Below are positions 5,644-62,190 of a stretch of 64,000 bases of DNA, piece by piece. Below the pieces are notes generated by a model. The model did no database searches. It had not been told where the DNA came from and saw nothing but the letters and a program-made list of their open reading frames with translations. The position numbers and the translations under genes were made by a program. The DNA is taken from assembly GCF_039770275.1 (NCBI RefSeq), contig NZ_JBDMYO010000012.1; one strand, 5' to 3'. The stretch's first letter is position 1; each line of letters opens with the position of its first letter. The DNA is from Nonlabens sp. (GTDB lineage Bacteria; Bacteroidota; Bacteroidia; Flavobacteriales; Flavobacteriaceae).

Positions 5644-6829
5644 TAATTATATCTTTTGCTACCTCTGTTTTGGGTTTAGTTTCAAATGTAGAGGTGTTTT
5701 TATCCTTATCTATAATCGTAATTTTATTGGTATCAACACCAAAACCAGCACCTTTATCTCGCATAGAATTTAAAATAAGTAAATCGGTCTGTTTTTTCTC
5801 TACTTTCGCGAAAGCGTGCTCCAATTCATTATCTGTTTCTAAAGCAAAGCCTACTAAAAACGGCTTCTTTTCCATTGCTCCTACACTTGCTAATATATCG
5901 GGATTTTTTACCAACTTTATAGTTAACGTATCTGACTTCTTTTTTATTTTCTGGTCAGCAGGATTTGACGGTCTATAATCTGCAACCGCTGCGCTAAAGA
6001 TAGCAACATCTACCACATTAATGATTTCATGAACTGCATCATACATTTGCTGTGCACTTTTTATATTGACTCGATCAATCAATTCATGCTGACAAACAAC
6101 ATGGCTGGGACCCATGATTAAATGAACTCTAGCTCCTTGAGTTGCTAACTCCATTGCAATTGCAGCACCCATTTTACCGCTACTATGATTTCCTATAAAA
6201 CGCACAGGATCAATAGCCTCGTACGTTGGTCCTGCCGTTATGAGACAGGTTTTCCCTCGTAAGGGAAGCTGACTTTCTATATGCTGTTCTATAAATTGAA
6301 TAATCTCTTCTGGCTCTGCCATACGACCTTTACCAGAAAGCCCACTTGCTAATTCTCCATCTCCTGCAGGAATCATAAGATTGCCGTATGAAGCTAGTTT
6401 ATCGAAGTTTGCTGTTGTGGATGGATGTTTGTACATGTCTAGGTCCATCGCTGGAGCAAAATAGACAGAACATTTTGCGCTACAATAAGTGGCTAGAAGT
6501 AGATTATCAATCGTACCATTCACCATTTTACTGATGGTGTTTGCCGTTGCAGGGGCAATAATTATTAAATCTGCCCAAAGACCTAATTCTACATGATTGT
6601 TCCATGTATCATTTTCATCTTCTTCATTAGTGAAATGAGTAAGAACTGGGTGCTTAGAAAGTGTGGATAATGTGAGTGGCGTAACAAAATCCCTTGCAGC
6701 AGGAGTCATTACCACTTTAACAGTTGCGCCTGCTTTAATAAGCAGGCGCACAAGATAAGTTGTTTTGTAAGCAGCAATACCACCGGTTACACCTAGCAAT
6801 ATTTTCTTACCACTTAAAACTGATATCAT
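5618..6829 (-). CDS. coaBC: Phosphopantothenoylcysteine decarboxylase/ligase
   Basis: KKILLGVTGGIAAYK, PATANTISK, APAMD, ITAGPTYEAIDPVRFIGNHSSGKMG. Start re-assigned to ATG 6829 (MISVLSGKK); the ORF-track extension overlaps rpoZ. Confidence 0.95.
   Translation of the reverse strand: MISVLSGKKILLGVTGGIAAYKTTYLVRLLIKAGATVKVVMTPAARDFVTPLTLSTLSKHPVLTHFTNEEDENDTWNNHVELGLWADLIIIAPATANTISKMVNGTIDNLLLATYCSAKCSVYFAPAMDLDMYKHPSTTANFDKLASYGNLMIPAGDGELASGLSGKGRMAEPEEIIQFIEQHIESQLPLRGKTCLITAGPTYEAIDPVRFIGNHSSGKMGAAIAMELATQGARVHLIMGPSHVVCQHELIDRVNIKSAQQMYDAVHEIINVVDVAIFSAAVADYRPSNPADQKIKKKSDTLTIKLVKNPDILASVGAMEKKPFLVGFALETDNELEHAFAKVEKKQTDLLILNSMRDKGAGFGVDTNKITIIDKDKNTSTFETKPKTEVAKDIINEIIKRIL
5801..5816. 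repeat. Palindrome copy (2 mismatches) inside coaBC, encodes AFAKV
   Basis: TACTTTCGCGAAAGCG. Confidence 0.75.
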
Positions 6830-6839
6830 TTTATAAGAT

Positions 6840-7166
6840 TTACTCTTCAGCAGCGCCAGTGTCTCTGAAGTATATTTTACCTTGTAACCATTCTTCAACA
6901 GCAATTGCTGCAGGCTTAGGTAAACGCTCGTAAAATTTAGAAACCTCAATTTGCTCTTTGTTCTCAAAAATTTCTTCAAGAGAATCATTATAAGTAGCAA
7001 ATTCTTCTAGCTTTTCTATAAGCTCTTCTTTAACGTCTGTATTAATTTGCTCAGCACGTTTTGCTATAATAGAAATTGCTTCATACATGTTTCCTGTAGG
7101 AGCAGTTAAAGCATCTCTATTATACGTAATAGTCGTGTTAGGAGCTGTAAGATTTTTAGTATCCAT
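6840..7166 (-). CDS. rpoZ: RNA polymerase omega subunit (Bacteroidota type)
   Basis: GNMYEAISIIAKRAEQIN, EIFENKEQIEVSKFYERLPKP. Confidence 0.9.
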   Translation of the reverse strand: MDTKNLTAPNTTITYNRDALTAPTGNMYEAISIIAKRAEQINTDVKEELIEKLEEFATYNDSLEEIFENKEQIEVSKFYERLPKPAAIAVEEWLQGKIYFRDTGAAEE

Positions 7167-9506: not shown

Positions 9507-10304
9507 ATGAAAAAATATACGATAGAAAAAAGGAAAGGCTTTTTGGGTTATTCCGCTTTCGCGAAAGCGGCAGTAATAACAACCATCCTGCTCGTTTCCT
9601 GTAATCAAAAAGATTACCGACTAGCTAAGGTTACTGGTAGCAAAACAGAGATAGACACCACTATTCAAAGCATCCACGAAATCGATGAATTTATCGCGCC
9701 ATTCAAAAAATCATTAGACGTTCAAATGGACGAAGAATTAAGTTTCAATCCTGTTTCCATGAATAAAAACGATTATAAGTACAATACTCCTTTGGGTAAC
9801 ATGCTGGCCGCAATTGTACTCGAACAAGGAGAACCTATTTATACATCTAGAACTGGCAAAAACATAGATGTAGTTTTATTGAACCATGGTGGCATAAGAG
9901 CAGGATTGCCTGCTGGACCAGTTACCATGAGAAGAGCTTATGAAATCATGCCGTTTGACAATGAAATTATTATCGTTGAACTTACTGGCGAAAAGATGAA
10001 TGAATTGATCAATTACCTTATCGATCGTAAAAGTGCTCACCCATTTAATGGTATGCAAATCATTTTAAATGCAGATAACAGCATTAACAAAGTTTCTATA
10101 CAAAATAAGCCGCTGGATAAAAGTAAAACCTATACCGTAGCAACTAGTGATTATCTATACAGTGGTGGTGATAACATGAGCTTTTTTAAGGAAGCACCGA
10201 TGGTAAAAATAGATTATAAAATACGTAATGCAACAATCGATTATTTTAAGAAAGTAGATACTATTAGATTTGAACGCGACAACCGATTTGAGGTTCTAGA
10301 TTAA
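9507..10304 (+). CDS. 5'-nucleotidase C-terminal domain lipoprotein
   Basis: Lipobox LLVSC; NHGGIRA, EIMPFDN, TSDYLYSGGD motifs. Confidence 0.88.
   Translation: MKKYTIEKRKGFLGYSAFAKAAVITTILLVSCNQKDYRLAKVTGSKTEIDTTIQSIHEIDEFIAPFKKSLDVQMDEELSFNPVSMNKNDYKYNTPLGNMLAAIVLEQGEPIYTSRTGKNIDVVLLNHGGIRAGLPAGPVTMRRAYEIMPFDNEIIIVELTGEKMNELINYLIDRKSAHPFNGMQIILNADNSINKVSIQNKPLDKSKTYTVATSDYLYSGGDNMSFFKEAPMVKIDYKIRNATIDYFKKVDTIRFERDNRFEVLD
9554..9569. repeat. Palindrome copy (perfect) inside the signal-peptide region of the 5'-nucleotidase gene, encodes SAFAKAA
   Basis: Direct match; extends to CCG...CGG. Confidence 0.95.
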
Positions 10305-12682: not shown

Positions 12683-12698
12683 CGCTGTCGCGAAAGCG
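12683..12698. repeat. Palindrome copy (1 mismatch) between convergent amtB and ligA
   Basis: TTTTCCGCTGTCGCGAAAGCGGAAAA (12678-12703), 26-bp imperfect palindrome. Confidence 0.85.
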
Positions 12699-12728: not shown

Positions 12729-15191
<2,463 letters not shown>

Positions 15192-15715: not shown

Positions 15716-18013
15716 ATGAAATTACGTCTCGCGATACTTTTTCTAAGCCTTATGTTCATTATCGGTTGTAAGGAACAAGGAGTTCAACTATTAAGTCCAT
15801 CTATCATTCCTGCTCCACAATTTTTAAAAGTAGATGCTAGACACTTCAGCATTGATGCAGCTACCATCATCAGTAATGGGGACGATTTCACACATTCTGT
15901 AGACTTTTTAAAAGCCTTTTTAGAACAAGGAACTGGTCGTAATTGGGAAACTAATTATACCACTGAAAACATTATCACTTTTGAATATGACGGCGCGATT
16001 ACTTCAAAAGAAGGTTACACTATAGAAATTAATGAGCAACAAATCCTCATTAAAGCCAGTACCGATACCGGCGCTTTCTATGCCGCTCAATCTCTTATAC
16101 AATTAATGCCAACAGATTTTTTGGATTCGAAAAACATTTCAGAAATTCACATTCCTGCGGTTACCATAAACGACGAGCCACGTTTTAAATATCGTGGTAT
16201 GCACCTCGATGTATCGCGACATATGTACGATGTGGATTTCATCAAGAAATACATCAACGCGATGGCGATGTTAAAGATGAACAACTTTCACTGGCATCTT
16301 ACAGATGATCAAGGCTGGCGTATCGAGATTAAGAAATATCCGCGATTACAAGAAGTAGCCGCTTATCGTGACAGCACTTTATTGGGTCATTACAACGACA
16401 CACCACATCAATATGACGGTAAAAAGTACGGTGGTTTTTATACACAAGAAGAAGTTCGTGAGGTGATCGCTTTCGCGAAAGCGAGACACATCAACGTCAT
16501 TCCAGAAATAGAACTACCTGGTCACGCACAAGCCGCTATCGCCGCCTATCCAGAATTGGGTTGTACTGGAGAAAATGTCCAAGTTGCCATGAAATGGGGC
16601 GTTTTTGAAGACATCTACTGCCCAAGCGAAGAAACTTTTACATTCCTAGAAAATGTACTGGACGAAGTAATGGAATTATTCCCTTCCAAATACATACACA
16701 TAGGTGGCGATGAAGCGCCTAAAACGCAATGGAAAACCAGTGCTGTCGCGCAACAAGTTATTCAAGAAAACGGCTTAACAGATGAGTATGAATTACAATC
16801 CTATTTTATCCAGCGCATGGAGCGATACCTCAACTCAAAAGGTCGCCAAATCATAGGTTGGGACGAGATTCTAGAAGGTGGACTGGCGCCTAATGCTACC
16901 GTAATGAGCTGGCGTGGTACTCAAGGGGCTGTCGAGGCCGCACAAGCTGGACACGATGTGATTATGACGCCTACGTCGCATGCTTATTTTGACTATTATC
17001 AAAGTGAAAATGATGACGAACCACTTGCCATAGGCGGATTTCTACCTTTAGAAAAAGTATATAATTTCAATCCTATTCCACAAGAACTGACCAAAGAAGA
17101 ATCCAAACATATTCTAGGACCACAAGGAAATGTATGGACAGAATATATGAAGACCAGCGACCAGGTGGAATACATGGCTTTTCCTCGCATGCTGGCCATG
17201 AGCGAAGTTGCATGGACTAACGAAGCAAACAAAGATTACTCTGGCTTTTTAAATAGACTTGAGGCTTTTCACAAACGATTAGATGCACTGGATATCAACT
17301 ATGCAAATCATCTTTATGAAGTGAGCGGCGTTTTAAATGATAGTCTCGCCTACGAATTAAGCACCGTAACCTTAGGAAAAGAAATACGCTACACAACAGA
17401 TGGGACGATACCTGATGCTACTTCTACCTTATATGAAAGAGCTATTCCATTTAACCAAAACCTAGAAATCAACACCACTGTTTTCAAAGATGGTAAAGCG
17501 CTAGGAAAAATGTTTAAACAAGAATTGATCTACCATAAAGGTGTAGGCGCAACCCTAACGATTGATAAAACACCGCACAGCGCTTATGCTGGTAGTGGCG
17601 CTACAGGATTGATTAACGGCATTAAAGGAAGTGATTCCCGTTATGGCGATAGTGAATGGTTGGGATTTTGGGGAGAAGACCTTGAAATTGAAATCGAATT
17701 TGAGGAACCTATTTTAATCTCAGAAATCGAGCTTAGATTTTACAATGCGCCTGGGCAGTGGATTTATGCGCCGAAACAATTTTCGTTTTACTCAAGATTT
17801 GAAAGCGGAGCTCTAGTTGCAGATAAAATTTTACTTAAAAATGAGGCTCAAAGTTCGCTAGTAGATTTTAAGTACGATTTTGGAAAATATAACAAAAGCA
17901 ATAAGTCAAAAAATATAAAATTCATAATCCCAAACTATGGCTTCATCCCAGAAGGCAAACAAGGCGCAGGAAATAAAGCCTGGACTTTTATTGATGAGAT
18001 TGTAATTAGGTGA
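15716..18013 (+). CDS. Beta-N-acetylhexosaminidase (GH20), lipoprotein with C-terminal accessory domains
   Basis: RGMHLDVSRH, FHWHLTDDQGWR, HIGGDE catalytic motif, IGWDEI; lipobox IIGC. Confidence 0.93.
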   Translation: MKLRLAILFLSLMFIIGCKEQGVQLLSPSIIPAPQFLKVDARHFSIDAATIISNGDDFTHSVDFLKAFLEQGTGRNWETNYTTENIITFEYDGAITSKEGYTIEINEQQILIKASTDTGAFYAAQSLIQLMPTDFLDSKNISEIHIPAVTINDEPRFKYRGMHLDVSRHMYDVDFIKKYINAMAMLKMNNFHWHLTDDQGWRIEIKKYPRLQEVAAYRDSTLLGHYNDTPHQYDGKKYGGFYTQEEVREVIAFAKARHINVIPEIELPGHAQAAIAAYPELGCTGENVQVAMKWGVFEDIYCPSEETFTFLENVLDEVMELFPSKYIHIGGDEAPKTQWKTSAVAQQVIQENGLTDEYELQSYFIQRMERYLNSKGRQIIGWDEILEGGLAPNATVMSWRGTQGAVEAAQAGHDVIMTPTSHAYFDYYQSENDDEPLAIGGFLPLEKVYNFNPIPQELTKEESKHILGPQGNVWTEYMKTSDQVEYMAFPRMLAMSEVAWTNEANKDYSGFLNRLEAFHKRLDALDINYANHLYEVSGVLNDSLAYELSTVTLGKEIRYTTDGTIPDATSTLYERAIPFNQNLEINTTVFKDGKALGKMFKQELIYHKGVGATLTIDKTPHSAYAGSGATGLINGIKGSDSRYGDSEWLGFWGEDLEIEIEFEEPILISEIELRFYNAPGQWIYAPKQFSFYSRFESGALVADKILLKNEAQSSLVDFKYDFGKYNKSNKSKNIKFIIPNYGFIPEGKQGAGNKAWTFIDEIVIR
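16468..16483. repeat. Palindrome copy (perfect) inside the GH20 gene, encodes IAFAKAR
   Basis: Direct match. Confidence 0.95.
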
Positions 18014-18163: not shown

Positions 18164-18895
18164 ATGTTACTAGAAATCTGCGCATCCAATTATCAGAGCG
18201 CCATAAACGCTCAAAAAGCTGGCGCACATCGTATAGAATTATGCAGTGAATTAGGCACTGGTGGCATTACACCTAGTTATGGACTACTCAAAAAAGTAAT
18301 GCAAGAACTGACCATTCCAGTCATGGTATTGATTCGTCCACGATCTGGGAATTTTGTTTACAGCGCTGCCGATTTTGATATCATGAAACGTGATATAGAA
18401 TTGTGTAAAGAACTAGGTTGTGCAGGAATAGTTTCTGGTGTTTTGACTGCTGATTTTAAAATAGACATCAAGCTTACGAGCGAGTTGATTGAACTATCAC
18501 GACCATTACCTTTTACCTTTCACAGAGCTTTTGATCATGTGGTTAATCCAGAACAAGCGGTGATGGATTTGGTGAATTTAGGCGCGCAACGTATCCTTAC
18601 TTCTGGACAGCAACCTAAAGCTATTGATGGACTAGAAAACTTGAAACGCTATCAAGAAATTGCAGGAGAAGAATTAACGATCATGCCTGGTGGTGGCATA
18701 AATGCTGGTAATTGTTCTGCTTTCGCGAAAGCGAAATTCAAAGAAATTCACGCCAGTGCAACAGAAATCATTACTCAAACTACTATGGAGAAAGTCCCAA
18801 TGAATTCACCTAAATTTCTTCAAGAAAACATAGAAATTATTTCTAGTAAAAACAACATCACTACCCTACTCAAAAATTTAAAAAATGAGGATTAG
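18164..18895 (+). CDS. cutC: CutC-family protein
   Basis: GAHRIELCSEL..GG.TPSYG, IRPRSGNF, TFHRAFD, RILTSG. Confidence 0.93.
   Translation: MLLEICASNYQSAINAQKAGAHRIELCSELGTGGITPSYGLLKKVMQELTIPVMVLIRPRSGNFVYSAADFDIMKRDIELCKELGCAGIVSGVLTADFKIDIKLTSELIELSRPLPFTFHRAFDHVVNPEQAVMDLVNLGAQRILTSGQQPKAIDGLENLKRYQEIAGEELTIMPGGGINAGNCSAFAKAKFKEIHASATEIITQTTMEKVPMNSPKFLQENIEIISSKNNITTLLKNLKNED
18718..18733. repeat. Palindrome copy (1 mismatch) inside cutC, encodes SAFAKAK
   Basis: TGCTTTCGCGAAAGCG. Confidence 0.9.
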
Positions 18896-21413
18896 TTTAT
18901 TTATAATTTTAGCTATTCTCATAAGCTCTTGTAAAGAAGAACGTCCTAATAAAGAACGACAGTTTATAGAAAGCAACTGGTCGCTTTATCAAGACGATCA
19001 TCACATGGTTTCTGATACTTTGACGATTCCTTTAACTGTTCACAGTGCTTACTTACCTCAACTTAATCATCCATTTATAGGTAACAATGAAGACAGTTTG
19101 CAATGGATGACTGAATTAGATTGGACTTACGAAACGGTTTTCACAGTTGATAAAGCAACACTTGCCAAAGAATATACTACCTTAAATTTTGAAGGAATAG
19201 ATACCTATGCTAGCATTGAACTTAATGGTCATGAGATTCTTGAAACAGATAATGCATTTTTACATTGGGAAGTAGATGTAAAGTCTATTTTAAAGAAAGA
19301 AAACAAACTAGTAGTAAAAATAAAATCACCTTTAGAAATAGAAGCACAAAAAGCACTTGCAAATCCCTATACCTTACCAGAAGGAAATAGGGTTTACACT
19401 CGTAAAGCACAATATCAATACGGTTGGGATTGGGGTCCGAAGCTCAATACCATGGGAATATGGAAACCTGTTTATCTTGAGGCTTACAACGATTTTAAAA
19501 TCAAAGATATTTATATCAAACAAAATTTTGTACAAGATTCTACAGCAAATCTTACCGCGCAGATTAAGTTATCGCAGCCTCTAGAAGAAAAGGTTACCTA
19601 TCAAATTAAGGTAAATGACAGCCTATATCCATTTAAGATTACTGACTCTTTATCGGTTTACAATAAAGACGCTACACAAGAAATCCATTTTGAAATCCCG
19701 CAAGTGCAACTATGGTGGCCGCACAATATAGGCGATCCTTATTTATATGAAATCGAAGTTTTAGTTTTAAAAGATCAAAAAGTTATTGATTCTAAAAAGT
19801 TGAAAAGAGGAATACGCACCATAGAATTAGTGAATGAGCCTGATGAACATGGAACAACCTTCTATTTTATAGTGAACAATGTGCCTGTTTACATGAAAGG
19901 CGCTAATTATATTCCGCAAAACTCGATGCAGGATCTGGTTACTGATGATCATTATGAAAAATTGCTGAGTGATGTCAAGGAAGCTAACATGAACATGCTA
20001 CGTGTTTGGGGCGGCGGCATTTATGAGAACGATATTTTTTATGAGAAGTGCGATGAAAAAGGAATATTGGTTTGGCAAGACTTTATGTTTGCTTGTGCGA
20101 TGTATCCTGGTGATGCACGCTTTCACGAAAGCGTAACCAACGAAATCAAACAGCAAATTACCAGATTGCGTAATCATAGTAGTATTGCCTTGTGGTGCGG
20201 TAATAATGAAACCAGTGAGGCGTGGCACAATTGGGGCTGGCAAGAAGGAAGATCGCAAGCAGAGCGCGATAGTATCTGGGAAGATTATCGTGCTGTTTTT
20301 CAAATCGCTATGCCTAAATATGTGAGCGAACTCACCAAAGAACCCTACTGGGAAAGCTCGCCAGAATACGGTCGTGGCAATCCCAAATATGAGTTTGAAG
20401 GTGATGCGCACGACTGGCGCGTGTGGCATGATGCCTATCCGTTTGAGCATTTTGAAGAACATGTACCACGATTTATGAGTGAATTTGGTTTTCAATCGCA
20501 TCCATCTTATGAGGCGATACGGTATATTAATGAAGACGGAAGAATTAACATCCAGTCAGATGATTATGCCTCGCATCAAAAACACGCTCGTGGAAATGAA
20601 TTGATACGAGAATATATGGAACATGATTTTCCAGTTCCTACTAGCGATGAAGATTATGTTTATGTAAGTCAACTACTGCAAGCCTATGGAATGTCTAAAG
20701 GAATTCAATCACATCGTAGAGCCAGACCGTATAATATGGGAACGCTATACTGGCAACTCAACGATTGCTGGCCTGCAGTAAGCTGGTCCAGTATCGATTA
20801 TTTCGGTAACTGGAAAGCCTTGCATTATCAAGTGAAACGTGATTTTGAAAATGTGTTGATTAGTAATGTGGTAGAGAATGATATTTTAAAAACTCACATA
20901 GTAAACGACAACCAAGAAACCGTTGTGGCAGATTTTAAAATTGAAATTATTGATTTTAAAGGAAAAGTAATTTATCGAGATATGATTGATAGTAGTGTCG
21001 CTTATGTAAAACCAAATTATAGCGAGGTCATTCATTCACTTCAACTGAAAGATCTGGTTTTTAATCGATCAAATGTTTATATCAAAACTAGTTATGGTTC
21101 TCTTGAGAAGATTTCATTTTTTAAAAAGCCTAAAGAGCTGAATTTGTTAAAAGTAGACTTAGCAATGAAAAGTTCAAAAACTAAAAACGGTTACAAAATC
21201 ACATTGAAATCTAATGTTTTTACAAAAGATCTATTTCTATATAGCAATGTAAAAGGTCATTTTTCAGATAATTTTTTCAATTTAGAACCTAACGTTGAAA
21301 AGACACTTTATTTTGAAACTAATAGTGATGAAGGAGCCGTATTAAACATGAAATCATTAAACGAAATGAATTATAAATATGAGCTTATTGAAGATACGGA
21401 ATACTGCTATTAA
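18885..21413 (+). CDS. Beta-mannosidase (GH2), lipoprotein
   Basis: RKAQYQYGWDWGP, NMLRVWGGG, WQDFMFAC, WCGNNE, SEFG, WQLNDCWP motifs; lipobox ISSC. Confidence 0.93.
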   Translation: MRISLFIILAILISSCKEERPNKERQFIESNWSLYQDDHHMVSDTLTIPLTVHSAYLPQLNHPFIGNNEDSLQWMTELDWTYETVFTVDKATLAKEYTTLNFEGIDTYASIELNGHEILETDNAFLHWEVDVKSILKKENKLVVKIKSPLEIEAQKALANPYTLPEGNRVYTRKAQYQYGWDWGPKLNTMGIWKPVYLEAYNDFKIKDIYIKQNFVQDSTANLTAQIKLSQPLEEKVTYQIKVNDSLYPFKITDSLSVYNKDATQEIHFEIPQVQLWWPHNIGDPYLYEIEVLVLKDQKVIDSKKLKRGIRTIELVNEPDEHGTTFYFIVNNVPVYMKGANYIPQNSMQDLVTDDHYEKLLSDVKEANMNMLRVWGGGIYENDIFYEKCDEKGILVWQDFMFACAMYPGDARFHESVTNEIKQQITRLRNHSSIALWCGNNETSEAWHNWGWQEGRSQAERDSIWEDYRAVFQIAMPKYVSELTKEPYWESSPEYGRGNPKYEFEGDAHDWRVWHDAYPFEHFEEHVPRFMSEFGFQSHPSYEAIRYINEDGRINIQSDDYASHQKHARGNELIREYMEHDFPVPTSDEDYVYVSQLLQAYGMSKGIQSHRRARPYNMGTLYWQLNDCWPAVSWSSIDYFGNWKALHYQVKRDFENVLISNVVENDILKTHIVNDNQETVVADFKIEIIDFKGKVIYRDMIDSSVAYVKPNYSEVIHSLQLKDLVFNRSNVYIKTSYGSLEKISFFKKPKELNLLKVDLAMKSSKTKNGYKITLKSNVFTKDLFLYSNVKGHFSDNFFNLEPNVEKTLYFETNSDEGAVLNMKSLNEMNYKYELIEDTEYCY
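20118..20133. repeat. Palindrome copy (1 mismatch) inside the GH2 gene, encodes RFHES
   Basis: CGCTTTCACGAAAGCG. Confidence 0.8.
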
Positions 21414-26402: not shown

Positions 26403-26428
26403 AGTATTGATAATATTTGTTGACACCT

Positions 26429-42187: not shown

Positions 42188-42203
42188 CGCTTTCGCGAAA
42201 GCG
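42188..42203. repeat. Palindrome copy (perfect) in the ahpC promoter region
   Basis: Direct match; extends to CCG...CGG. Confidence 0.95.
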
Positions 42204-43568: not shown

Positions 43569-43664
43569 ATGCGCTACTATTAAGATTATTGAATAAAATT
43601 CTTGAAAATTGAGGATTTAATAGATGCTGTGATATATTTTTACGATATAACTAAACTTCTTTTT

Positions 43665-44670: not shown

Positions 44671-44686
44671 CGCTTTCGCGAAAGCG
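44671..44686. repeat. Palindrome copy (perfect, intergenic between convergent genes)
   Basis: Direct match. Confidence 0.95.
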
Positions 44687-47158: not shown

Positions 47159-48492
47159 TATAACAATCCTCTTGCTTTTATTTCTAGGTATTTATTAATC
47201 GTGTTTACTGTCAGGTGTTTTGGTTCTGTAAGAATAGTTTGAATACCGTATTTATTTAATTCATTAACGATCAATTTTTTCTCATAGATAAATTTCTCAG
47301 CAATCGTTTTTTGATAAATTTCTTGTGTGGACACCGCAGGTTGTTTTACAAGCTCCTGAAGTTCTGTATTATCAAAAAATATGACCACTAGCAAATGATT
47401 TTTGGCAATCGCTTGAAGATATGGAAGCTGTCTATGCAGTGCATCCATTGTCTCAAAATTAGTATATAGCAACAACAAACTGCGTTGTGTTATCGATCGT
47501 TTAATGTCTATATACAATCTTCCAAAATCGCTTTCTTTAAAGTCTGTATCCAGATTATATAAAGTCTCTAAAATCAAGTTCATTTGAGAAGCTCGTTTTT
47601 GAGCCATTACCTGATTAGAAACTTTATCTGAAAAGCTAAACATTCCTGCTTTGTCTCCTTTTTTAAGAGCGATATTAGAAATAACTAGTGTAGAATTAAT
47701 CGCATAATCTACCAACTTTAGTTCTTCAAAAGGCATTTTCATTACACGACCTTTATCAATTACTGAATATACTGGTTGTGATTTCTCATCCTGAAATTGA
47801 TTGATCATCAACTGGTTGCGTTTGGCACTTGCTTTCCAGTTGATGTTGCGCACATCATCACCTTGAACATAATCTTTGATCTGTTCAAATTCCATGGTAT
47901 GGCCTATTCTTCTTATTTTTTTAAGTCCATAATCTTTTAGTTTATTGGTAAAAGCCATCAACTCATACTTGCGCAATTGTAAAAAAGATGGATAATTAGG
48001 GACCATAGCGTCTTGATCCACAGAGAATTTGCGTTGCGCAAAACCCAAAACTGTACTCACAAAAATTTGCAAGCCACCAAAATGATATTCACCTCTTTCT
48101 GTAGGTCTTACAGAGTAAGGAAAAGTTCTAGATGCGCCACTCTTGATGGTGTCCTTAATTTCAAAATTACGTTCTTGAAATTGTACAGGCAACTCGTCAA
48201 TAATTTTTACGTCTATAGAAGAATTGTAGCGATTTGTCACCAGAATCTCTACAGGGTTTTTGTCACCGTTAGATAACTTATCAGGAAGGTTACGACTTGC
48301 CTTAATCGCATTTTTAGATCGATATAAAAGTAATATATCAAATATGAGCAAACCTATCACTACAAAGAATCCTATTTTGAGGTAATCTACTATACGCTCA
48401 AAAAAGAACGCAAAGACAAATAACACCACTAGAATTCCTAGTGCTATAAAGAAGCGTTGTTGCAGGTATAGGCTTTTAAAGAATTTCTTCAC
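47158..48492 (-). CDS. DUF58 (VWA-like) protein
   Basis: EFEQIKDYVQGDDVRNINWKASA, IDKGRVM; GTG start overlaps the MoxR stop. Confidence 0.9.
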   Translation of the reverse strand: MKKFFKSLYLQQRFFIALGILVVLFVFAFFFERIVDYLKIGFFVVIGLLIFDILLLYRSKNAIKASRNLPDKLSNGDKNPVEILVTNRYNSSIDVKIIDELPVQFQERNFEIKDTIKSGASRTFPYSVRPTERGEYHFGGLQIFVSTVLGFAQRKFSVDQDAMVPNYPSFLQLRKYELMAFTNKLKDYGLKKIRRIGHTMEFEQIKDYVQGDDVRNINWKASAKRNQLMINQFQDEKSQPVYSVIDKGRVMKMPFEELKLVDYAINSTLVISNIALKKGDKAGMFSFSDKVSNQVMAQKRASQMNLILETLYNLDTDFKESDFGRLYIDIKRSITQRSLLLLYTNFETMDALHRQLPYLQAIAKNHLLVVIFFDNTELQELVKQPAVSTQEIYQKTIAEKFIYEKKLIVNELNKYGIQTILTEPKHLTVNTINKYLEIKARGLL

Positions 48493-49652
48493 TATCTAGG
48501 AATCTCGATGTTTTCTAATATTTGTGATACAGCACGATCTGCTGTAAGTCCTTCCATTTCTCTTTCAGGAGTTAATATAATTCTATGACTCATGACCGCA
48601 GTTGCGATATATTTAATGTCATCTGGTGTAACAAAATCACGTCCCATAATAGCTGCATATGCTTTAGAACCGTTCATAATAGCAATAGATGCACGTGGTG
48701 ATGCTCCTAAATAAAGATTAGGGTTGTTACGTGTATCTAAAATTATCTTTGCGATGTACTTGATCAAATTGTTTTCTATCACAATCTCTTTAACCGTTTT
48801 CTGATATTTTGCAATCTCAGTGGCATTCATGATGGCATTAACAGTCGATTCTGCATCGGCGTTTTTACGATCATGATGATCGGTAAGAATCTGGATTTCT
48901 TCTTCCAGATTAGGATAACCTACATTAATTTTAAATAAGAAACGGTCTAATTGCGCTTCTGGCAATCTATATGTTCCTTCTTGTTCTACTGGGTTTTGAG
49001 TAGCAAATACTAAAAACGGAGCATTTAACTCGTATTCCTTACCATCGATGGTTACTTGACGTTCTGCCATAGCTTCAAAAAGAGCTGCTTGCGTTTTTGC
49101 CGGTGCTCTATTAATCTCATCGATCAAAATGATATTTGAAAATATAGGTCCTGGTTTGAATTCGAACTCGTTGTTTTTCATAGAGAAAACAGATGTTCCC
49201 AATATGTCTGATGGCATCAAATCTGGAGTAAATTGTATACGTGAGAAGTCTACCTGGATTGTTTTTGCCAGCAACTTTGCAGTAATTGTTTTTGCAACTC
49301 CAGGAACTCCTTCAATCAAAGAATGACCGTTTGCTAGTATGGAAACGATCAATAAATCGATCATTTCTTCCTGGCCTACGATTACTTTACGCAATTCAGT
49401 CTTTATTTTATAAACCGCCGCACTTAAATGATTCAAATCCAGTCTGTTTTGAAATTGTAAAGATGTAGCTTTATCTTCTACTTGTGGCTGGTCTTGGGGT
49501 GGTATTGTTGATGGTTGTTCCGCTTTCGCGAAAGCGTTATCAATACCAACCTCTTCACTGTTTTGAACAAATTGATCTTGTGCTGGCTCTTGTGGTGGCT
49601 GGCTATTAGATGGATCTTGAGGATTGTTCAAATCGTTATTAGTTTCTTCCAT
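48492..49652 (-). CDS. moxR: MoxR family AAA+ ATPase
   Basis: GVPGVAKT, RIQFTPDLMPSD, DEINRAPAKTQ, ATQNPVEQEGTY.LPEAQLDRF, ASPRAS. Confidence 0.95.
   Translation of the reverse strand: MEETNNDLNNPQDPSNSQPPQEPAQDQFVQNSEEVGIDNAFAKAEQPSTIPPQDQPQVEDKATSLQFQNRLDLNHLSAAVYKIKTELRKVIVGQEEMIDLLIVSILANGHSLIEGVPGVAKTITAKLLAKTIQVDFSRIQFTPDLMPSDILGTSVFSMKNNEFEFKPGPIFSNIILIDEINRAPAKTQAALFEAMAERQVTIDGKEYELNAPFLVFATQNPVEQEGTYRLPEAQLDRFLFKINVGYPNLEEEIQILTDHHDRKNADAESTVNAIMNATEIAKYQKTVKEIVIENNLIKYIAKIILDTRNNPNLYLGASPRASIAIMNGSKAYAAIMGRDFVTPDDIKYIATAVMSHRIILTPEREMEGLTADRAVSQILENIEIPR
49521..49536. repeat. Palindrome copy (perfect) inside the MoxR N-terminal extension, encodes NAFAKAE
   Basis: Direct match. 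Confidence 0.95.
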
Positions 49653-53629: not shown

Positions 53630-54352
53630 ATGTCAAATACTGCAATTAACACGGCACAAAATGTAAATATTGAATATGAGTTTGCTGGTGTAGGAAAGCG
53701 CATGATTGCTTTTTTACTCGATTTTGTAGTGCTAGCCATTTATATAATAGTGATGAGTTTAACTGTTTACAAAGCCATTGGACTCTTTGATAGTAATAAT
53801 GTCTTAGGAATTAAAGAGTTATCTCTTCTACCCATTTTTTGTTATTCATTAACTCTACATCTTATTTTTAATGGTCGCACAGTAGGTAAATTCATAATGG
53901 GTATCAAAGTAGTTAAGGAAGATGGATCGCCTGCAAACCTATCTGATTTTCTTGTTAGATGGATATTGAGATTGATTGATATTGTATTGTTTTTTGGAAC
54001 CGTAGGCGTTGTCACCATTTTATTTTCTGAAAAAAAGCAACGTTTAGGAGATATTGCTGCAAAAACAATTGTTATCAATACTAAAAAAAGCACTAAAATT
54101 TCTCATACCATACTAGAAGAGCTTGATCCCAATTATCAACCTCAATTTCAAAATGCCTACATCCTATCTGACGCTGTAGTTAATGAGATCAAAGATATCT
54201 ATCGTCTAGCTGGCGAAAGTCGCGATTACATGACTCTTAGAGAATTGCGCAATAGAGTAGAGCAACTATTAAACACTCAATCAGATTTACGAGATGGCGC
54301 ATTTATACGCACAGTTCTTAAAGATTACACTTATTTAACTCAAGGACGATGA
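53630..54352 (+). CDS. RDD family protein
   Basis: R..AFLLD, GRTVGK, RW..R.ID, QRLGD.AA.T. Confidence 0.9.
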   Translation: MSNTAINTAQNVNIEYEFAGVGKRMIAFLLDFVVLAIYIIVMSLTVYKAIGLFDSNNVLGIKELSLLPIFCYSLTLHLIFNGRTVGKFIMGIKVVKEDGSPANLSDFLVRWILRLIDIVLFFGTVGVVTILFSEKKQRLGDIAAKTIVINTKKSTKISHTILEELDPNYQPQFQNAYILSDAVVNEIKDIYRLAGESRDYMTLRELRNRVEQLLNTQSDLRDGAFIRTVLKDYTYLTQGR

Positions 54353-54972
54353 ATTTCATTGAAATTATTGATGTTTTAGGTACTATTGCCTTTGCGATTT
54401 CTGGTGCTCTTGCAGCTTTTTCAAAAAAATTAGATCCATTTGGTATTATAATAATTGCGTTTGTTACTGCTATAGGCGGCGGTACTTTGAGAGATATTTT
54501 AATAGGTGTTGATCCTGTTTCATGGATGCGCAATATGAATACTATTTACATTATTCTTGCTTGCGTTATCATCACTTTTATTTTTAAAACCAAACTATTA
54601 AAACTACGTAAGACGTTATTTTTATTTGACGCTATTGGGATAGGTTTATATACTGTGGTTGGTTTAGAAATGGGAATTGTCGCAGGTTTAAACCCTTTTA
54701 TATGTATCATACTTGGCTGTATGACAGCCTGTTTTGGTGGTGTGATACGTGATATTTTGATCAATGAAATTCCTGTAATTTTCAGAAAAAATATTTATGC
54801 TACTGCTTGCATTGCTGGTGGTATGATTTACTTTTTGCTTTTAGAATTTAATTTATCTAACAATATTGTTTTCATCGTTTCAGCTATAACAGTAATTGCA
54901 ACACGTGTTTTGGCTGTTATTTTTAAATTAAAGCTTCCTTCTCCGTATAGTGATGAAATTATAAAAGAATAA
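54349..54972 (+). CDS. TRIC/UPF0126 (YadS-like) membrane protein
   Basis: AFAISGA, TAIGGGTLRD, FDAIG.G, FGGVIRD. Confidence 0.9.
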   Translation: MNFIEIIDVLGTIAFAISGALAAFSKKLDPFGIIIIAFVTAIGGGTLRDILIGVDPVSWMRNMNTIYIILACVIITFIFKTKLLKLRKTLFLFDAIGIGLYTVVGLEMGIVAGLNPFICIILGCMTACFGGVIRDILINEIPVIFRKNIYATACIAGGMIYFLLLEFNLSNNIVFIVSAITVIATRVLAVIFKLKLPSPYSDEIIKE

Positions 54973-54986: not shown

Positions 54987-55002
54987 CGCTTTCGCGAAAG
55001 CG
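54987..55002. repeat. Palindrome copy (perfect) between convergent genes
   Basis: Direct match; extends to TTTCG...CGAAA. Confidence 0.95.
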
Positions 55003-55071: not shown

Positions 55072-55974
55072 TTATTCCTTTCCTGCTTTAAAGAGGTAAT
55101 CTTTCTCTGCTTTTGATAGAGATTCATAACCGCTAGAAGAAATCTTATCTAGAATCGCGTCAATCTTTGCTTGATCTGTAGACTTAGCTGAAGTAGTTTT
55201 TCTTGTAGTCGTTTTACCTTTGTATACCGTTTTCATTTTTGCTTTACGCTGGGATTTAGGTTGTTTAGGACTAGACTTAAAAAGGTTTGCAATGTAGTCT
55301 CCTATTTTTGCAAATCCTTCTAAAATATCGATACCAGATTTCATGCGAGTTGCGGCATAATAACCTACGGCTGCACCAGCAAGATGTGCCAGATTACCGC
55401 CTGCATTAACACCTAAAGCTGCTCCTACTATATTTATAGCAAGAAAAAAATAAGCAAAGTATTTTAATTTGATATTAACTATAATCAGTCGATACTCAGA
55501 TTCTGGGAAGTAAGTACATGCAAAAAAGATAAGCGCAAATACACCTGCGCTAGCACCTATTAAACTTGTGCCTTTGAAAAAACTAGGCAATAGGTTTGTA
55601 GCTAAAGCGAAAGAAATTGCTCCTGCAAATACTCCTAAAAAGAACAACGTTAGAAACTGCCTACCTTTAAATATGTTTAGAATATATCTTCCTGCGATAA
55701 AAATACCGAAGGCATTACCTATAAAATGAAGTATACCATCGTGTAAAAAACCATAAGTAATCCAGCTCCATGGTTTTAAAAGCAGTTCAACAAAGGAACG
55801 GTTTGTTAAATCCTCAAAGGTGTAACCATAGGAAAGAGCTAATTGATGATAAGCTGGAGCGTACAAAAAACTTAAAATCCAACCTAAAATAGTGGTTCCT
55901 AATAGTACAGTTATAAGCTTTGCACTTGTATCAAAAGTGGCATACTTTAATTTAAACTGATCCCAAACATTCAT
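55072..55974 (-). CDS. Rhomboid intramembrane serine protease with a C-terminal DUF6576-like tail
   Basis: H..GN, GASAG, AHLAG, IDAILDKIS.SGY.SL. Confidence 0.9.
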   Translation of the reverse strand: MNVWDQFKLKYATFDTSAKLITVLLGTTILGWILSFLYAPAYHQLALSYGYTFEDLTNRSFVELLLKPWSWITYGFLHDGILHFIGNAFGIFIAGRYILNIFKGRQFLTLFFLGVFAGAISFALATNLLPSFFKGTSLIGASAGVFALIFFACTYFPESEYRLIIVNIKLKYFAYFFLAINIVGAALGVNAGGNLAHLAGAAVGYYAATRMKSGIDILEGFAKIGDYIANLFKSSPKQPKSQRKAKMKTVYKGKTTTRKTTSAKSTDQAKIDAILDKISSSGYESLSKAEKDYLFKAGKE

Positions 55975-60589: not shown

Positions 60590-60729
60590 AAATTCATTTT
60601 TGAATTTGCAAAAATACTCAATCTGTAGAGTTTTAGTAGAACTCTTTGCCATCAATTTAACAGTGTATTAACTCGATTTTTAGATCATTAAGCCGTTTTT
60701 TGTTGTTATCTATTATTATTGTTAATTTT

Positions 60730-62190
60730 ATGCTTTTTTATTCCTCGCTTTCGCGAAAGCGTAACTATTATACAGCCCATGTTATCGCCCTACTAACATG
60801 CCTACTGATCATTTGCTCTTGTGAAAAAAAAGATGATGATTCTACATCCCTTTATGTTACTGGAAAAATTATTAATCCAAAAGGGGATTATGTAATTATT
60901 AAAAATTATTCTGGAATCAACGATACACTTGCATTAGATAAAAAAGGCGTTTTTATCAAAGAATATAAAGAGCTAAAACCAGGTCTTTACACATTCACAC
61001 ATCCGACAGAGTATCAATCTATTTATTTAGGTCATGGCGATACTTTGCGTTTAAGATTAAACACAAAGGCATTTGATGAATCCCTTGCTTTTACTGGTGC
61101 AGCAGCAAAAGAAAATAATTATTTAATTAATTTATTTCTAGAGATCGAGGAACAAAATAGATCTCTTTTGAGCGAATATCAAAGAGAGCCTAGTGACTTT
61201 AAAAAAATGATTGATAGCATTAATGAAATTAGAGTTAAAAAACTTAACAAGTTAGCTTCGGCAAATAAATTTCAAGATGAATTTGTGAAAAGCGCTATGA
61301 AAATACTCAATTTCAATTCGTGGTCCCGACTAGAACGCTATGCATCTGCACATTATGGGAAAAATGAAATTCTAAAAAGTGATGTTCTTCCTTCTAATTT
61401 TTATTCCTACAGACGTGATTTAGAAATATGCAGTACAGATTTATTAAACAATTATGCTTACCGCCCTTACATAACAGCACATTTATCTAATCTTGCTCTT
61501 TATAATTGTGCTCTCAAGCATGGAACTGGAAAAACGGTGGATCGCAATGGCCTTGAATACCGTAAAGAAAAACTGAATGTTATAGACAGTCTTTTTACAG
61601 ACGAAGAGTTAAAAGGTCTTTTTGCAGGTATTGAAACTAGAAATTTCATAAGAAGCAGAAAAAACGCTGTTGAAATTAATCAACTGGTTGCAAAATTTCT
61701 AGAAATTTCTCAAGATGAAGAATTGAATAATGAAATCACAAAAATGGCTGCCACCTACATCGACCTAGATCCAGGCAATAAGCTCCCTGATTTTGACCTT
61801 TACAAATTTAATAAAGAAATTACCACACTTTCTTCTCAAGTGAAAGGATTGAGCGTTCTTTTTTACTGGTCCAATAAGAATGAATCCTATGCATTGAGAA
61901 TTCATAGAAAAGTAAATGATTTAAGGATAAAATATCCAGAAATCAATTTTATAGGTGTTAATCTAGACGATCCAAAAAGTAATGTATGGAGTGAAACCAG
62001 CCAGAAATTTGGTTTCAAAAAATCATCAGAATTTCAATTAGTAGATAATCAATCTATAAGTAAACAGCTGGCGTTAAGAAATGACAATCGCAGTATGGTT
62101 ATCGCGCCAGAACTAGTCATATTAGACCCAAACATTAATTTGTTTCATTATCAAATAGAAACCACACTATTAGGTTATTTAAGTAGATAG
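60730..62190 (+). CDS. Lipoprotein with a C-terminal TlpA/thioredoxin-like fold (no CxxC)
   Basis: Lipobox ICSC; C-terminal GNKLPDF..VLFYWS..IGVNLD; start at ATG 60730 inferred. Confidence 0.7.
   Translation: MLFYSSLSRKRNYYTAHVIALLTCLLIICSCEKKDDDSTSLYVTGKIINPKGDYVIIKNYSGINDTLALDKKGVFIKEYKELKPGLYTFTHPTEYQSIYLGHGDTLRLRLNTKAFDESLAFTGAAAKENNYLINLFLEIEEQNRSLLSEYQREPSDFKKMIDSINEIRVKKLNKLASANKFQDEFVKSAMKILNFNSWSRLERYASAHYGKNEILKSDVLPSNFYSYRRDLEICSTDLLNNYAYRPYITAHLSNLALYNCALKHGTGKTVDRNGLEYRKEKLNVIDSLFTDEELKGLFAGIETRNFIRSRKNAVEINQLVAKFLEISQDEELNNEITKMAATYIDLDPGNKLPDFDLYKFNKEITTLSSQVKGLSVLFYWSNKNESYALRIHRKVNDLRIKYPEINFIGVNLDDPKSNVWSETSQKFGFKKSSEFQLVDNQSISKQLALRNDNRSMVIAPELVILDPNINLFHYQIETTLLGYLSR
60746..60761. 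repeat. Palindrome copy (perfect) in the signal-peptide n-region, encodes SLSRKR
   Basis: Direct match. Confidence 0.95.

Follow-up and report, generated by a model that had tools for sequence, protein, structure and literature searches.

HIP1 (GCGATCGC) is a hyper-abundant exact palindrome of 8 bp that characterizes one lineage, the cyanobacteria, in which it occupies all gene frames as well as intergenic positions at a reported 300-2,700 copies per Mb. Conservation of its sites across species exceeds the level that codon usage would explain and is due to selection (PMC5861425), extension to longer palindromes is possible and one-off variants are common (PMC4390886), and it raises transformation, with its function debated between nucleoid structure and transformation or recombination (bioRxiv 10.1101/2024.09.10.611283). 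The uptake sequences of Haemophilus (USS) and Neisseria (DUS) are asymmetric 9-12-mers in both orientations that arise by substitution in tolerated frames and poorly conserved residues, and they mould proteomes such that the encoded peptides become more frequent (PMC2817400). Natural competence, with a preference for self DNA, is known from Riemerella, of the same order as Nonlabens (PMC7965970). Chi sequences are 5-8 nt long, asymmetric, skewed by replication strand and read as single-stranded DNA. In E. coli, Chi is present about once per 4.5 kb. The parS and Noc-binding sites are 16 bp perfect palindromes, genic or intergenic, that are read by ParB-family dimers; genomes have from a handful up to a few tens of them, with parS clustered near the origin. 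Rickettsia palindromic elements (RPEs) are insertions of about 100-150 bp within protein-coding genes, and REPs are extragenic imperfect palindromes in clusters.

The window analysed here, the whole of a 64 kb stretch of Nonlabens DNA, contains 14 exact copies of a perfect 16 bp palindrome, CGCTTTCGCGAAAGCG. Its 12-mer core, CTTTCGCGAAAG, has 17 exact occurrences versus 0.00 expected from dinucleotide-preserving shuffles, and at up to three mismatches the full word is present in 21 copies versus 0.08 expected. The word has a firm 14-mer core with weak Y/R extensions, and most decayed copies reflect single transitions, such as CGCG to CACG at 20118. A scan of the window found no half-site GCGAAAGCG outside a palindrome. 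Eleven of the 21 copies are in real genes, nine are intergenic, and one is a weak copy in ligA; per base, the palindrome is about four times commoner in non-coding DNA. The original prediction was that the palindrome is written into eleven proteins in all three frames, and each site that it named was located, with seven reading AFAK(A/V), two RF(R/H)ES and two LSRK; all of its gene names are backed by Pfam. The nine intergenic copies and the weak ligA copy are additional to that list. Although AFAKA has 256 possible encodings, all 17 of the 14-mers that could encode it in the window (any frame, both strands) are the palindrome or a one-off decay of it, and the codons are invariably GCT TTC GCG AAA GC, with every synonymous position fixed.

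The leftmost genic copy, in coaBC (TACTTTCGCGAAAGCG, 5801..5816; gene 5618..7000, minus), has two mismatches at its outer end and encodes AFAKV (residues 396-400), and the orthologous position is exact in N. antarcticus (L085) and in a second locus, L086. An exact copy at 9554..9569 encodes AFAKA (residues 17-21) in the N-terminal signal-peptide region of a 5'-nucleotidase C-domain protein (9507..10304, plus) and has orthologous counterparts in five other Nonlabens loci. The ligA copy (CATTTTCGCGCAAGCG, 14053..14068), with three mismatches, could be a decayed copy, but the case is weak and the match may be due to chance. The GH20 beta-N-acetylhexosaminidase gene (15716..18013, plus) has an exact copy at 16468..16483 (AFAKA, residues 252-256) that is identical in six species, and the cutC copy (TGCTTTCGCGAAAGCG, 18718..18733; gene 18164..18895, plus; AFAKA, residues 186-190) has one mismatch and orthologous copies in four other species. 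In the GH2 beta-mannosidase-like gene (18885..21413, plus) the copy at 20118..20133 (CGCTTTCACGAAAGCG) differs by a central G to A change and reads RFHES; it is exact, reading RFRES, in four other species. The exact copy in ribD (23483..23498; gene 23277..24290, plus; AFAKA, residues 70-74) is found in four lineages and is missing in N. antarcticus and L086. The EamA transporter gene (24287..25153, plus) has an exact copy at 25135..25150, such that its final five codons are AFAKA followed by the stop. A menC/o-succinylbenzoate-synthase-like gene (31054..32097, minus) carries an exact copy at 31581..31596 (RFRES, residues 168-172) with an orthologous copy in N. marinus. The cupin copy (CGCTTTCGCGAAAGCT, 38215..38230; gene 37725..38273, plus; LSRK, residues 165-168) has a last-base mismatch, and N. 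ponticola and N. marinus also have one-mismatch orthologous copies; Leu follows LSRK in all of these proteins, which makes the same last base the probable site of the mismatch. The exact copy in the MoxR AAA+ ATPase gene (49521..49536; gene 48492..49652, minus) encodes AFAKA at residues 40-44, about 70 residues ahead of the AAA_3 domain (starting at residue 110). Lastly, an exact copy at 60746..60761 encodes the N-terminal LSRKR of a thioredoxin-fold (AhpC/TSA) lipoprotein (60700 or 60730..62190, plus), whose signal peptide has SRKR as its basic n-region, followed by ...LLIICSC, the Cys ending the lipobox. The EamA, MoxR and lipoprotein copies lie in tolerant regions (the last five codons, the segment ahead of the AAA domain, and a signal peptide), as had been proposed.

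The first of the intergenic copies (2061..2076, exact) is 64 nt 3' of the stop codon of an enoyl-ACP-reductase-like gene (2140..2946, minus). A copy with one mismatch (CGCTGTCGCGAAAGCG, 12683..12698) is the centre of a 28 bp near-palindrome between the convergent genes amt (ending at 12666) and ligA (ending at 12729). The exact copy at 26429..26444, common to L082, separates PNPOx-like (25857..26426, minus) and 4HBT thioesterase (26466..26885, minus) genes; a 90-residue open reading frame over it overlaps two real genes and is probably spurious and non-coding. An exact copy at 32833..32848, between the divergent DUF4442 (32313..32786, minus) and MamF/MmsF-like (32947..33447, plus) genes, is kept in position in N. 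ponticola and N. marinus, and these species also have an orthologous copy upstream of AhpC, corresponding to the exact copy at 42188..42203, 51 nt upstream of a peroxiredoxin gene (42254..42889). A copy with two mismatches (GGCTTTCGCAAAAGCG, 38398..38413) is located between the cupin gene and a Na+/H+ antiporter gene (38515..40047). Exact copies are present between convergent genes at 44671..44686 (43602..44558, plus, and 44865..45425, minus) and at 54987..55002 (a glycine-transporter family gene, 54349..54972, plus, and a rhomboid gene, 55072..55974, minus), and at 63873..63888, 11 nt after the stop codon of an FGE-sulfatase-like gene (63041..63862, plus).

Seven of the eleven genic sites (GH20, ribD, cutC, GH2, coaBC, menC and cupin), which include all three frames, were aligned to motif-free relatives or solved structures. 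All seven show substitution without an insertion or deletion, as had been predicted, and at six of them the anchor is a pre-existing Phe or Tyr codon. In GH20, six Nonlabens-clade genes have ATC GCT TTC GCG AAA GCG where five outgroup genera have GTT GCY TAT GCN (CAR/AAW) ... in the same columns, giving (A/Q)YA(K/Q)x without an indel. Two deep-branching motif-free Nonlabens have D-F-S-K-A or D-F-A-S-C in ribD, with equal length at the site; AFAKA in cutC corresponds to x-F-(K/R)-x-x in outgroups, RFRES in GH2 to x-F-(L/F)-(N/E)-N, HAFAKV in coaBC to HARAKL (6tgv) and YATKKL (5int), RFRES in menC to SFSPQ (PDB 2pge, no indel), and LSRKL in the cupin to IAQKL, RAVKR and similar peptides, the outgroups having (I/R/L/Q/K)A(Q/V/I)(K/A/I). 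Genic copies occupy places at which the ancestral peptide was already similar to one of the three translations, and copies almost certainly arise and persist by base substitution rather than insertion.

Constraint at the level of DNA is apparent in the six-species GH20 alignment, in which none of the 16 motif columns varies, versus about 27 of 86 flanking columns (hand count). The same silent-site pattern is seen in cutC, radA and asparaginase, of which radA and asparaginase are 0.9-1.2 Mb from the origin. At orthologous sites the 16-mer is identical, third codon positions included, where protein identity is about 62-90%, among them species with orthologues at only 62-77%, and flanking synonymous positions vary, and orthologous positions are kept for coding and intergenic copies alike. 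The expectation that AFAKA would use fixed codons is thereby upheld, with a single encoding in the window and the same codons across species despite variable neighbouring third positions. The conserved object is very probably the DNA word, a DNA-level signal under constraint, rather than the peptide. These data support the earlier suggestion that a DNA signal shapes protein sequence, but the idea itself had already been demonstrated with DNA uptake sequences (PMC2817400) and considered for HIP1 (PMC5861425).

All eight of the Nonlabens lineages sampled (loci L002, L082, L084-L086 and L250-L253) have 6-8 copies per ~21 kb, and no copy was found at ≤2-3 mismatches in 80 loci (79 plus Gillisia, ~1.6 Mb) of non-Nonlabens Bacteroidota. 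Each of the chromosomal regions sampled has a density of about one copy per 3 kb, and extrapolation from the roughly 250 kb of Nonlabens DNA covered suggests that a whole genome of 2.9-3.2 Mb would contain about 800-1,200 copies. Forty-four intervals, from the window and other loci, have a mean of about 3 kb and a longest of 5.8 kb, and only one is below 500 bp; this spacing is evener than random (rough p about 0.001 versus exponential, a hand calculation from loci that are limited in length). The palindrome is missing from P12024S and P12024L, two related lytic Nonlabens phages of 35.7 kb each, compared with about 10 copies per phage expected if their host has the density of the sampled Nonlabens loci. 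A myovirus-like viral contig, probably a temperate phage or prophage, has at least six copies in 37 kb, within portal and terminase genes. The sister genus Psychroserpens has a different word, the asymmetric 9-mer CTTCGGAAA, at similar density.

The palindrome is similar to HIP1 in its hyper-abundance as an exact palindrome within one lineage, its use of all gene frames and intergenic sites, its site conservation, its extensibility and its common one-off variants. It differs in length (16 bp versus 8), sequence and phylum (Bacteroidota), is without a known cognate methyltransferase, and at about 300 per Mb is at the low end of the HIP1 range; because it spans five codons, it alters amino acids far more visibly. 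As with USS and DUS, a genome has roughly a thousand copies, which are restricted to one genus or family, are enriched in intergenic DNA although most lie inside genes, are conserved at orthologous positions, are substituted into tolerated frames and are missing from newly acquired DNA, and the different Psychroserpens word resembles the DUS 'dialects'; unlike them, the Nonlabens word is perfectly palindromic, lacks free half-sites and is at host density in a phage genome. It shares with Chi a similar density, over-representation in the resident genome, embedding in coding sequence and absence from lytic phage, but a palindrome carries no orientation. The format of parS and Noc-binding sites is matched, with a putative dimeric reader, although the sequence is unrelated and the roughly one thousand Nonlabens copies are uniformly distributed. 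The likeness to RPEs, REPs and MITEs is limited to being palindromic repeats, with RPEs also lying within coding genes; nothing has been inserted at the tested Nonlabens sites, and the contrast originally drawn with RPEs is correct.

We lean, on balance, towards describing the Nonlabens element as a genus-specific highly iterated palindrome, a statement judged as a whole and weighted toward those parts that are shown. The absence of half-sites and the conservation of sequence rather than pairing potential make a sequence-specific protein with two-fold symmetry (a homodimer), acting on duplex DNA, the most likely reader of the 16-mer, and such a putative reader probably exists. Given a copy every few kb, confinement to a single lineage and no copies in lytic phage, the palindrome could act as a 'resident chromosome' tag for a genome-wide uptake, recombination or repair-type process, as proposed for USS/DUS, Chi and HIP1, and it would be kept up by selection or by a selection-like drive on graded matches. 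By analogy with those systems, a self-tag for uptake or recombination is possible, and we put it forward tentatively: the known uptake sequences and Chi are shorter and asymmetric, a 16 bp perfect palindrome has more in common with dimeric binding sites, parS and NBS for instance, than with any known uptake signal, and a phage carries the palindrome at host density. In contrast to this motif-rich phage, the Mu-like prophage of H. influenzae has few USS. We know of no report of competence in Nonlabens.

Several other scenarios account for part of these observations. Spread of a mobile mini-element by insertion, adding peptide in the manner of a MITE, REP or RPE, is in keeping with many copies of palindromic form but is refuted for the tested sites, as there is no length difference from motif-free homologues at any of the seven; flanks are unrelated from copy to copy, there are no target-site duplications, and we consider this explanation effectively dismissed. 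Next to no probability attaches to selection of the AFAKA peptide with DNA identity as a side effect. The helix-friendly AFAKA frame is favoured about 5:1 over RFRES and LSRK (15:3:3 at distinct genic sites in the window and other Nonlabens loci, or about 15 of 21), but the same DNA word is also found in both remaining frames and at nine intergenic positions, and its synonymous positions are fixed, which refutes this view, and the host proteins are mutually unrelated. A hairpin in RNA or single-stranded DNA, acting in transcription termination, in RNA stability or processing, or in priming or replication, would fit the location of most of the nine intergenic copies, which lie shortly after a stop codon or separate convergent genes, and each strand contains GCGAAAGC, the sequence of a DNA mini-hairpin described as extraordinarily stable (PMC13037366). 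It is nevertheless very unlikely: the majority of copies are intragenic, where a terminator would harm, no T-run follows the copies, only one of the eight copies at 24.8-44.8 kb has a terminator-like score, the overall number of terminator-like sites does not exceed that in shuffles, the folding energy (-4.3 kcal/mol, z = -0.9) is unremarkable, and the palindrome has no Rfam match. Variants are single asymmetric changes without compensatory partners, and therefore it is sequence and not pairing that is conserved. A functionless by-product of biased repair or methylation, in which a methyltransferase or mismatch-specific nuclease acting at the central TCGCGA/CGCG converts near-matches in a very-short-patch-like manner, is consistent with the prevalence of single transitions among decayed copies and with the presence of the motif in resident DNA, (pro)phage included, and not in lytic phages, whose replication in the host is brief; a repair-linked origin was proposed for HIPs by Elhai (PMC4390886). 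We regard it as improbable, since sixteen specified bases far exceed any known methyltransferase or Vsr context and TCGCGA outside the motif is near expectation (8 seen versus a hand estimate of about 6). New sites such as that in ribD are about 8 of 16 bases off the motif-free state, and therefore one-off mismatch correction cannot create them, and the even spacing and roughly 5:1 frame bias indicate selection on site placement.

Two further explanations concern the chromosome itself. The dnaA gene is within the window (27066..28493, from synteny with gene-called loci), and a 16 bp palindrome could there reflect an origin-proximal, parS-like centromere array, noticed only since the window includes dnaA. 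This is refuted by equal density far away, with six copies at the pheS locus of N. ponticola, 884 kb from the dnaA-side locus (also six), and eight at that of N. marinus, 1.16 Mb from the dnaA locus (also eight), and three metagenome loci with unrelated genes have four exact copies each; such an array is exceedingly improbable. A more general role in chromosome architecture, in which an abundant nucleoid-associated or ParB/Noc-like dimer would bind the palindrome and organise the nucleoid through loop anchors, condensin loading or occlusion, with selection for regular coverage keeping the sites and with no link to uptake or recombination, is unlikely but deserves more weight. A perfect palindrome without half-sites is the format of parS and NBS, the spacing is even with uniform density far from the origin, and orthologous sites are deeply conserved; for HIP1, Xu et al. 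likewise concluded in favour of an architectural role (PMC5861425). However, by eye only 3 of the 8 half-site positions agree with canonical parS, and architecture gives no reason for copies in phage portal and terminase genes and leaves the asymmetric 9-mer of the sister genus, at similar density, unexplained. The density of the palindrome is also about 15 times that of B. subtilis NBS and about 100 times that of parS. The symmetric protein reader is a step common to the architectural explanation and to the iterated palindrome that we favour.

The core CTTTCGCGAAAG is present in 17 exact copies in the window, against 0.00 expected from dinucleotide-preserving shuffles. Comparison of the flanks shows that the full unit is a perfect 16 bp palindrome, CGCTTTCGCGAAAGCG, of which there are 14 exact copies and, allowing up to three mismatches, 21 copies against 0.08 expected; the window is 35% G+C. 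The bases immediately flanking the 16-mer have a weak pyrimidine/purine preference, and farther out the flanks are unrelated among copies. The half-site GCGAAAGCG is never found alone in the window, outside of the palindrome, and a half-site signal is thus rejected.

ORF mapping places seven copies in the AFAK(A/V) frame (in coaBC, the 5'-nucleotidase, GH20, cutC, ribD, EamA and MoxR), two in the LSRK frame (the cupin and the lipoprotein), and copies in the RFRES frame in menC (RFRES) and, as a one-off copy, in GH2 (RFHES). Nine copies are intergenic, and the non-coding portion, roughly one-tenth of the window, holds about nine of the 21 copies. The gene identities of the copy-bearing ORFs agree with Pfam, and the original observation that the palindrome lies within eleven proteins in three frames is confirmed as written. 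Every AFAKA-capable 14-mer in the window is the palindrome itself, and the codons are always GCT TTC GCG AAA GC, as had been anticipated. Some copies do occupy tolerant places such as signal peptides and protein termini: that in the lipoprotein forms the basic n-region of the signal peptide, and that in EamA the final five codons. Arithmetic on the window together with the N. ponticola and N. marinus loci gives 15 distinct genic sites in the AFAKA frame, three in RFRES and three in LSRK. Selection on the peptide is ruled out by the use of three frames, the intergenic copies and the fixed codons.

In GH20, I-AFAKA-R is present in all 27 Nonlabens-clade orthologues, whereas V-(A/Q)-Y-A-(K/Q)-x-R occupies these columns in outgroups (Winogradskyella, Psychroserpens and others). 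In the DNA, ATCGCTTTCGCGAAAGCGAGACA is common to six Nonlabens species, and five outgroup genera have a sequence beginning GTT GCY TAT GCN, aligned without gaps. The ribD gene contains the word in four lineages, but N. antarcticus and a related metagenome-assembled genome (MAG) lack it and encode D-F-S-K-A or D-F-A-S-C over a site of equal length; only about 8 of the 16 bases in these relatives agree with the word, indicating that several substitutions gave rise to the site. Other comparisons are AFAKA with x-F-(K/R)-x-x in cutC, RFRES with x-F-(L/F)-(N/E)-N in GH2, HAFAKV with HARAKL or YATKKL of solved structures in coaBC, RFRES with SFSPQ of 2pge in menC, and LSRKL with IAQKL, RAVKR and similar sequences in the cupin. 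None of these seven sites, which together cover all three frames, differs in length, so that an inserted element of the MITE or Rickettsia palindromic element type is ruled out for them and substitution without indels, as originally proposed, holds at each. Together with the fixed codons, the gap-free sites also support the proposal that a DNA signal is shaping protein sequence. The TTC of the motif occupies the place of an older Phe or Tyr codon in six of the seven cases, and from these sequences new copies appear to grow out of partial matches.

Conservation is greater at the word than around it. In a six-species alignment of GH20 none of the 16 motif columns is variable, compared to about 27 of 86 flanking columns (by hand count), the latter mostly at third positions, and hand counts at sampled loci show the same for orthologous positions generally, both coding and intergenic, where flanking silent sites vary while the 16-mer is identical. 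Copies at orthologous places occur in coaBC, the 5'-nucleotidase, GH20, cutC, GH2 and EamA, in lineages with GH20 proteins that are 62-77% identical, and in N. ponticola and N. marinus additionally in the radA, asparaginase, TPR protein and LPG-synthase genes; conserved intergenic copies include that at 32833 and the one upstream of the peroxiredoxin gene. Decay is lineage-specific: the GH2 copy is changed from CGCG to CACG in the window and is exact in four other species, and the coaBC copy of the window has lost its outer two bases. The cupin copy ends in T in the window because the following codon must be Leu, and since N. ponticola and N. marinus also have a one-mismatch copy and Leu at the same residue, the coding requirement appears to prevail at the outermost base. 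Because 16 bp of identity is too short for homologous gene conversion between copies, each site calls for selection, or for a drive that acts like it. What these comparisons show is a DNA word that is specific to a lineage, is under constraint and has been written over genes through substitution.

The word is spread evenly over the Nonlabens regions sampled. Eight lineages contain 6-8 copies per ~21 kb, about one per 3 kb, while 79 other Bacteroidota loci together with the pheS locus of Gillisia (~1.5-1.6 Mb) contain none, even at 2-3 mismatches. The 79 distant loci, here used as negative controls, and one Nonlabens locus are the listed matches of a general GH20 profile search; the close Nonlabens relatives were gathered separately, via contigs encoding given proteins. 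In N. ponticola six copies are present both at the dnaA-side locus and at pheS, 884 kb away, and in N. marinus loci 1.16 Mb apart, at pheS and dnaA, have eight each. An origin-restricted parS array is rejected by this equal density at 0.9-1.2 Mb from dnaA. By extrapolation there would be roughly 800-1,200 copies per genome. The 44 intervals in the window and the N. ponticola and N. marinus loci average about 3 kb, with the longest 5.8 kb and only one below 500 bp, and are more evenly spaced than an exponential distribution (p about 0.001, a rough hand estimate); the spacing statistics, frame tallies and variable-column counts are all rough hand work from tables. A strain-specific insertion in N. 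ulvanivorans CP136694 (locus L084, 2727-5635), encoding a 678-residue protein with a faint PIN_3 match, an ASCH protein and a small ORF, contains no palindrome and produces the longest inter-site gap of any locus, 6.8 kb, which fits with the idea that recently acquired DNA is without the word. At least 120 metagenome stretches contain the word, and three multi-copy contigs with four exact copies each carry unrelated genes (pheS, hemA and lhr; LysM and M49 peptidase; and a histidine kinase, TonB-dependent receptor and BNR-repeat protein). Its presence in independent NCBI, ENA, JGI and Logan assemblies rejects an assembly artefact.

Phages differ in whether they carry the word. Two lytic siphoviruses of Nonlabens (Persicivirga) that are related to each other, P12024S and P12024L (35.7 kb each), have no copies at up to three mismatches, against an expectation of about ten at the density of the host. 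Among IMG/VR sequences there are 42 stretches with the word, and the 37 kb contig IMGVR_UViG_3300040781_000495 (IMG/VR contig handles L228, L245 and L248) contains at least six copies and encodes portal, large terminase, head protease, major head, tail sheath and baseplate proteins; RFRES is at residues 12-16 of the portal, and frame arithmetic places the terminase copy in the AFAKA frame. Other myovirus-like contigs have the palindrome at host-like density (L213, L215, L216, L224-L226, L233 and L238), and several viral contigs share equal inter-site distances (1760 and 4480 nt), indicating that they belong to one phage family. Some of the UViG identifiers resemble those of isolate genomes by IMG numbering, and would then represent integrated proviruses. 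The contrast suggests that the word is carried by resident or co-evolving DNA, and not by transient lytic DNA.

A role for the palindrome at the RNA level is unlikely. Only one of the eight copies in 24.8-44.8 kb has a terminator-like score and the total is no higher than in shuffles, and with most copies intragenic an intrinsic terminator is rejected; there is no match to a known RNA family, and the stability of the hairpin is not special. Reads are sparse in the sole metatranscriptome containing the organism, too few for transcript ends.

The word shares some features with known systems and lacks others. HIP1-type signals have orphan methyltransferases that recognize the inner bases; as with these, the Nonlabens word is a short exact palindrome occurring orders of magnitude above composition, with sites conserved among genomes both within and between ORFs (by hand counts at sampled loci), but HIP1 is GCGATCGC or a derivative of it and is cyanobacterial, whereas CGCTTTCGCGAAAGCG belongs to Nonlabens within the Flavobacteriaceae. 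Competent cells prefer to take up DNA bearing USS or DUS motifs, and these too have hundreds to thousands of copies in a single lineage and coding copies gained through substitution, in favored frames and tolerant positions. Their core is asymmetric, however, and occurs in both orientations, and the Nonlabens word is perfectly symmetric. Chi is a short asymmetric word with leading-strand skew, and such skew is impossible for a 16 bp palindrome. Sites of the parS/ParB family are also 16 bp palindromes, with the consensus TGTTNCACGTGAAACA and few copies near the origin, but the Nonlabens word is by eye unrelated to this and is not confined in that way. Rickettsia palindromic elements and MITEs lengthen the genes into which they insert, which is seen at none of the seven sites.

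As half-sites are absent, sequence and not pairing is conserved, and the format resembles parS/NBS, the most likely mechanism is that the word would be read as a duplex by a two-fold symmetric protein and would serve a process requiring one site per few kb of resident DNA. The best analogies for such a role are uptake sequences, Chi and HIP1. A role in nucleoid architecture is a serious rival to this reading. A pure by-product of repair or methylation is a less probable origin of the copies, given the length of the word, the many changes that each new site needs, and a spacing and choice of frame that look selected. The finding itself is real, and the word is to be classed with the HIP1 and USS types of genomic signal, from which it is set apart by its length, perfect symmetry, phylum and extent of protein overprinting. 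USS build up by substitution in tolerant frames and change peptide frequencies (PMC2817400), HIP1 sites are held by selection (PMC5861425), and methylated HIP1 gives higher transformation efficiency (bioRxiv 10.1101/2024.09.10.611283). Riemerella, of the same order as Nonlabens, is naturally competent and prefers its own DNA (PMC7965970).

A second word is seen in Psychroserpens luteus (locus L005, 1565-18830), of a genus sister to Nonlabens, in which CTTCGGAAA is present in 11 copies in 22.3 kb, in both orientations, against 0.14 expected, with the extended form TnTCTTCGGAAAT. There are eight copies in 22 kb of Flavobacteriaceae bacterium UBA3611 (locus L013, 1751-21984) and two at most in any other locus retrieved. 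CTTCGGAAA lacks symmetry and looks like an uptake sequence; TTCG(C)GAAA is common to it and the Nonlabens palindrome, hinting at genus-specific 'dialects' within the Flavobacteriaceae. No analogous words were found in Winogradskyella, Corallibacter, Gillisia, Aquimarina or Tenacibaculum loci by a repeat search that is insensitive below 10-12 nt. It is conceivable, although rather doubtful, that Flavobacteriaceae have a hitherto unrecognized system of genus-specific 'self-DNA words' (CGCTTTCGCGAAAGCG in Nonlabens and CTTCGGAAA in Psychroserpens and UBA3611), each with a dedicated protein reader marking resident chromosomes for uptake, recombination or protection, and that this constraint would suffice to rewrite stretches of five codons in hundreds of proteins, some of them in co-evolving temperate phages.

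With a word five codons long and a genus whose proteins range over 62-90% identity, the conflict between DNA signal and coding can be read site by site, with unusually clear examples in GH20 (Tyr to Phe and Val to Ile) and menC (Ser-Phe-Ser-Pro-Gln to Arg-Phe-Arg-Glu-Ser). Highly iterated or uptake-type genomic signals are thereby extended to the Bacteroidota; no description of such a signal emerged from literature searches on the sequence itself, on iterated palindromes of Bacteroidetes and on palindromes of Nonlabens. Nonlabens is marine and cultivable, with complete genomes and isolated phages, and the signal is directly testable there; the reader and function of such signals is a question that has stood for three decades with HIP1. 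For the binning of metagenome contigs the word is also a nearly perfect marker of the genus, and it may aid in assigning temperate phages to Nonlabens hosts.

Three genes of the window, GH20, the cupin and pheS, agree in assigning it to Nonlabens. The GH20 protein of the window has its best matches, 73-77% identical, in Nonlabens MAGs and N. ulvanivorans, gene order is common to the window and other Nonlabens, and the organism was detected only in seawater, oyster and bioreactor metagenomes. Since dnaA is at 27066..28493, the window includes the origin region of the chromosome; no clear G+C-skew switch is visible in its coarse profile.

Among various other features of the window, we note that a decayed copy between the convergent amt and ligA genes is at the center of a 28 bp near-palindrome, ATTTTCCGCTGTCGCGAAAGCGGAAAAT (12676-12703). 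In N. ulvanivorans and two further Nonlabens loci (L082 and L002) the copy corresponding to that at 12683 lies in the 5' end of a gene encoding 267 residues that is missing from the window; a deletion may have ended close to the motif, and the flanks are not convincingly alignable. A 34 nt hairpin, TTAAAGCAGATTCCGCATCGAGTGCGGAATTTCA, is present in two copies that are 97% identical (21473-21506 and 22618-22651), one lying where GH2 and prmC converge and the other directly downstream of a GNAT gene, and these are probably terminators. Between ligA and GH20 (14783-15500) are a PIN-domain toxin gene and a DUF6364/RHH antitoxin-like gene, a pair shared with N. antarcticus and the Nonlabens MAG locus L086 and missing from L082 and N. 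ulvanivorans; a 44 nt repeat is located in the same region, at 15295 and 15543. At the left end of the window (157-1510) a ~130 nt repeat is present three times, 60-70% identical and at spacings of 660 and 564 nt, and probably stems from a gene with repeated domains that continues beyond the edge of the window.
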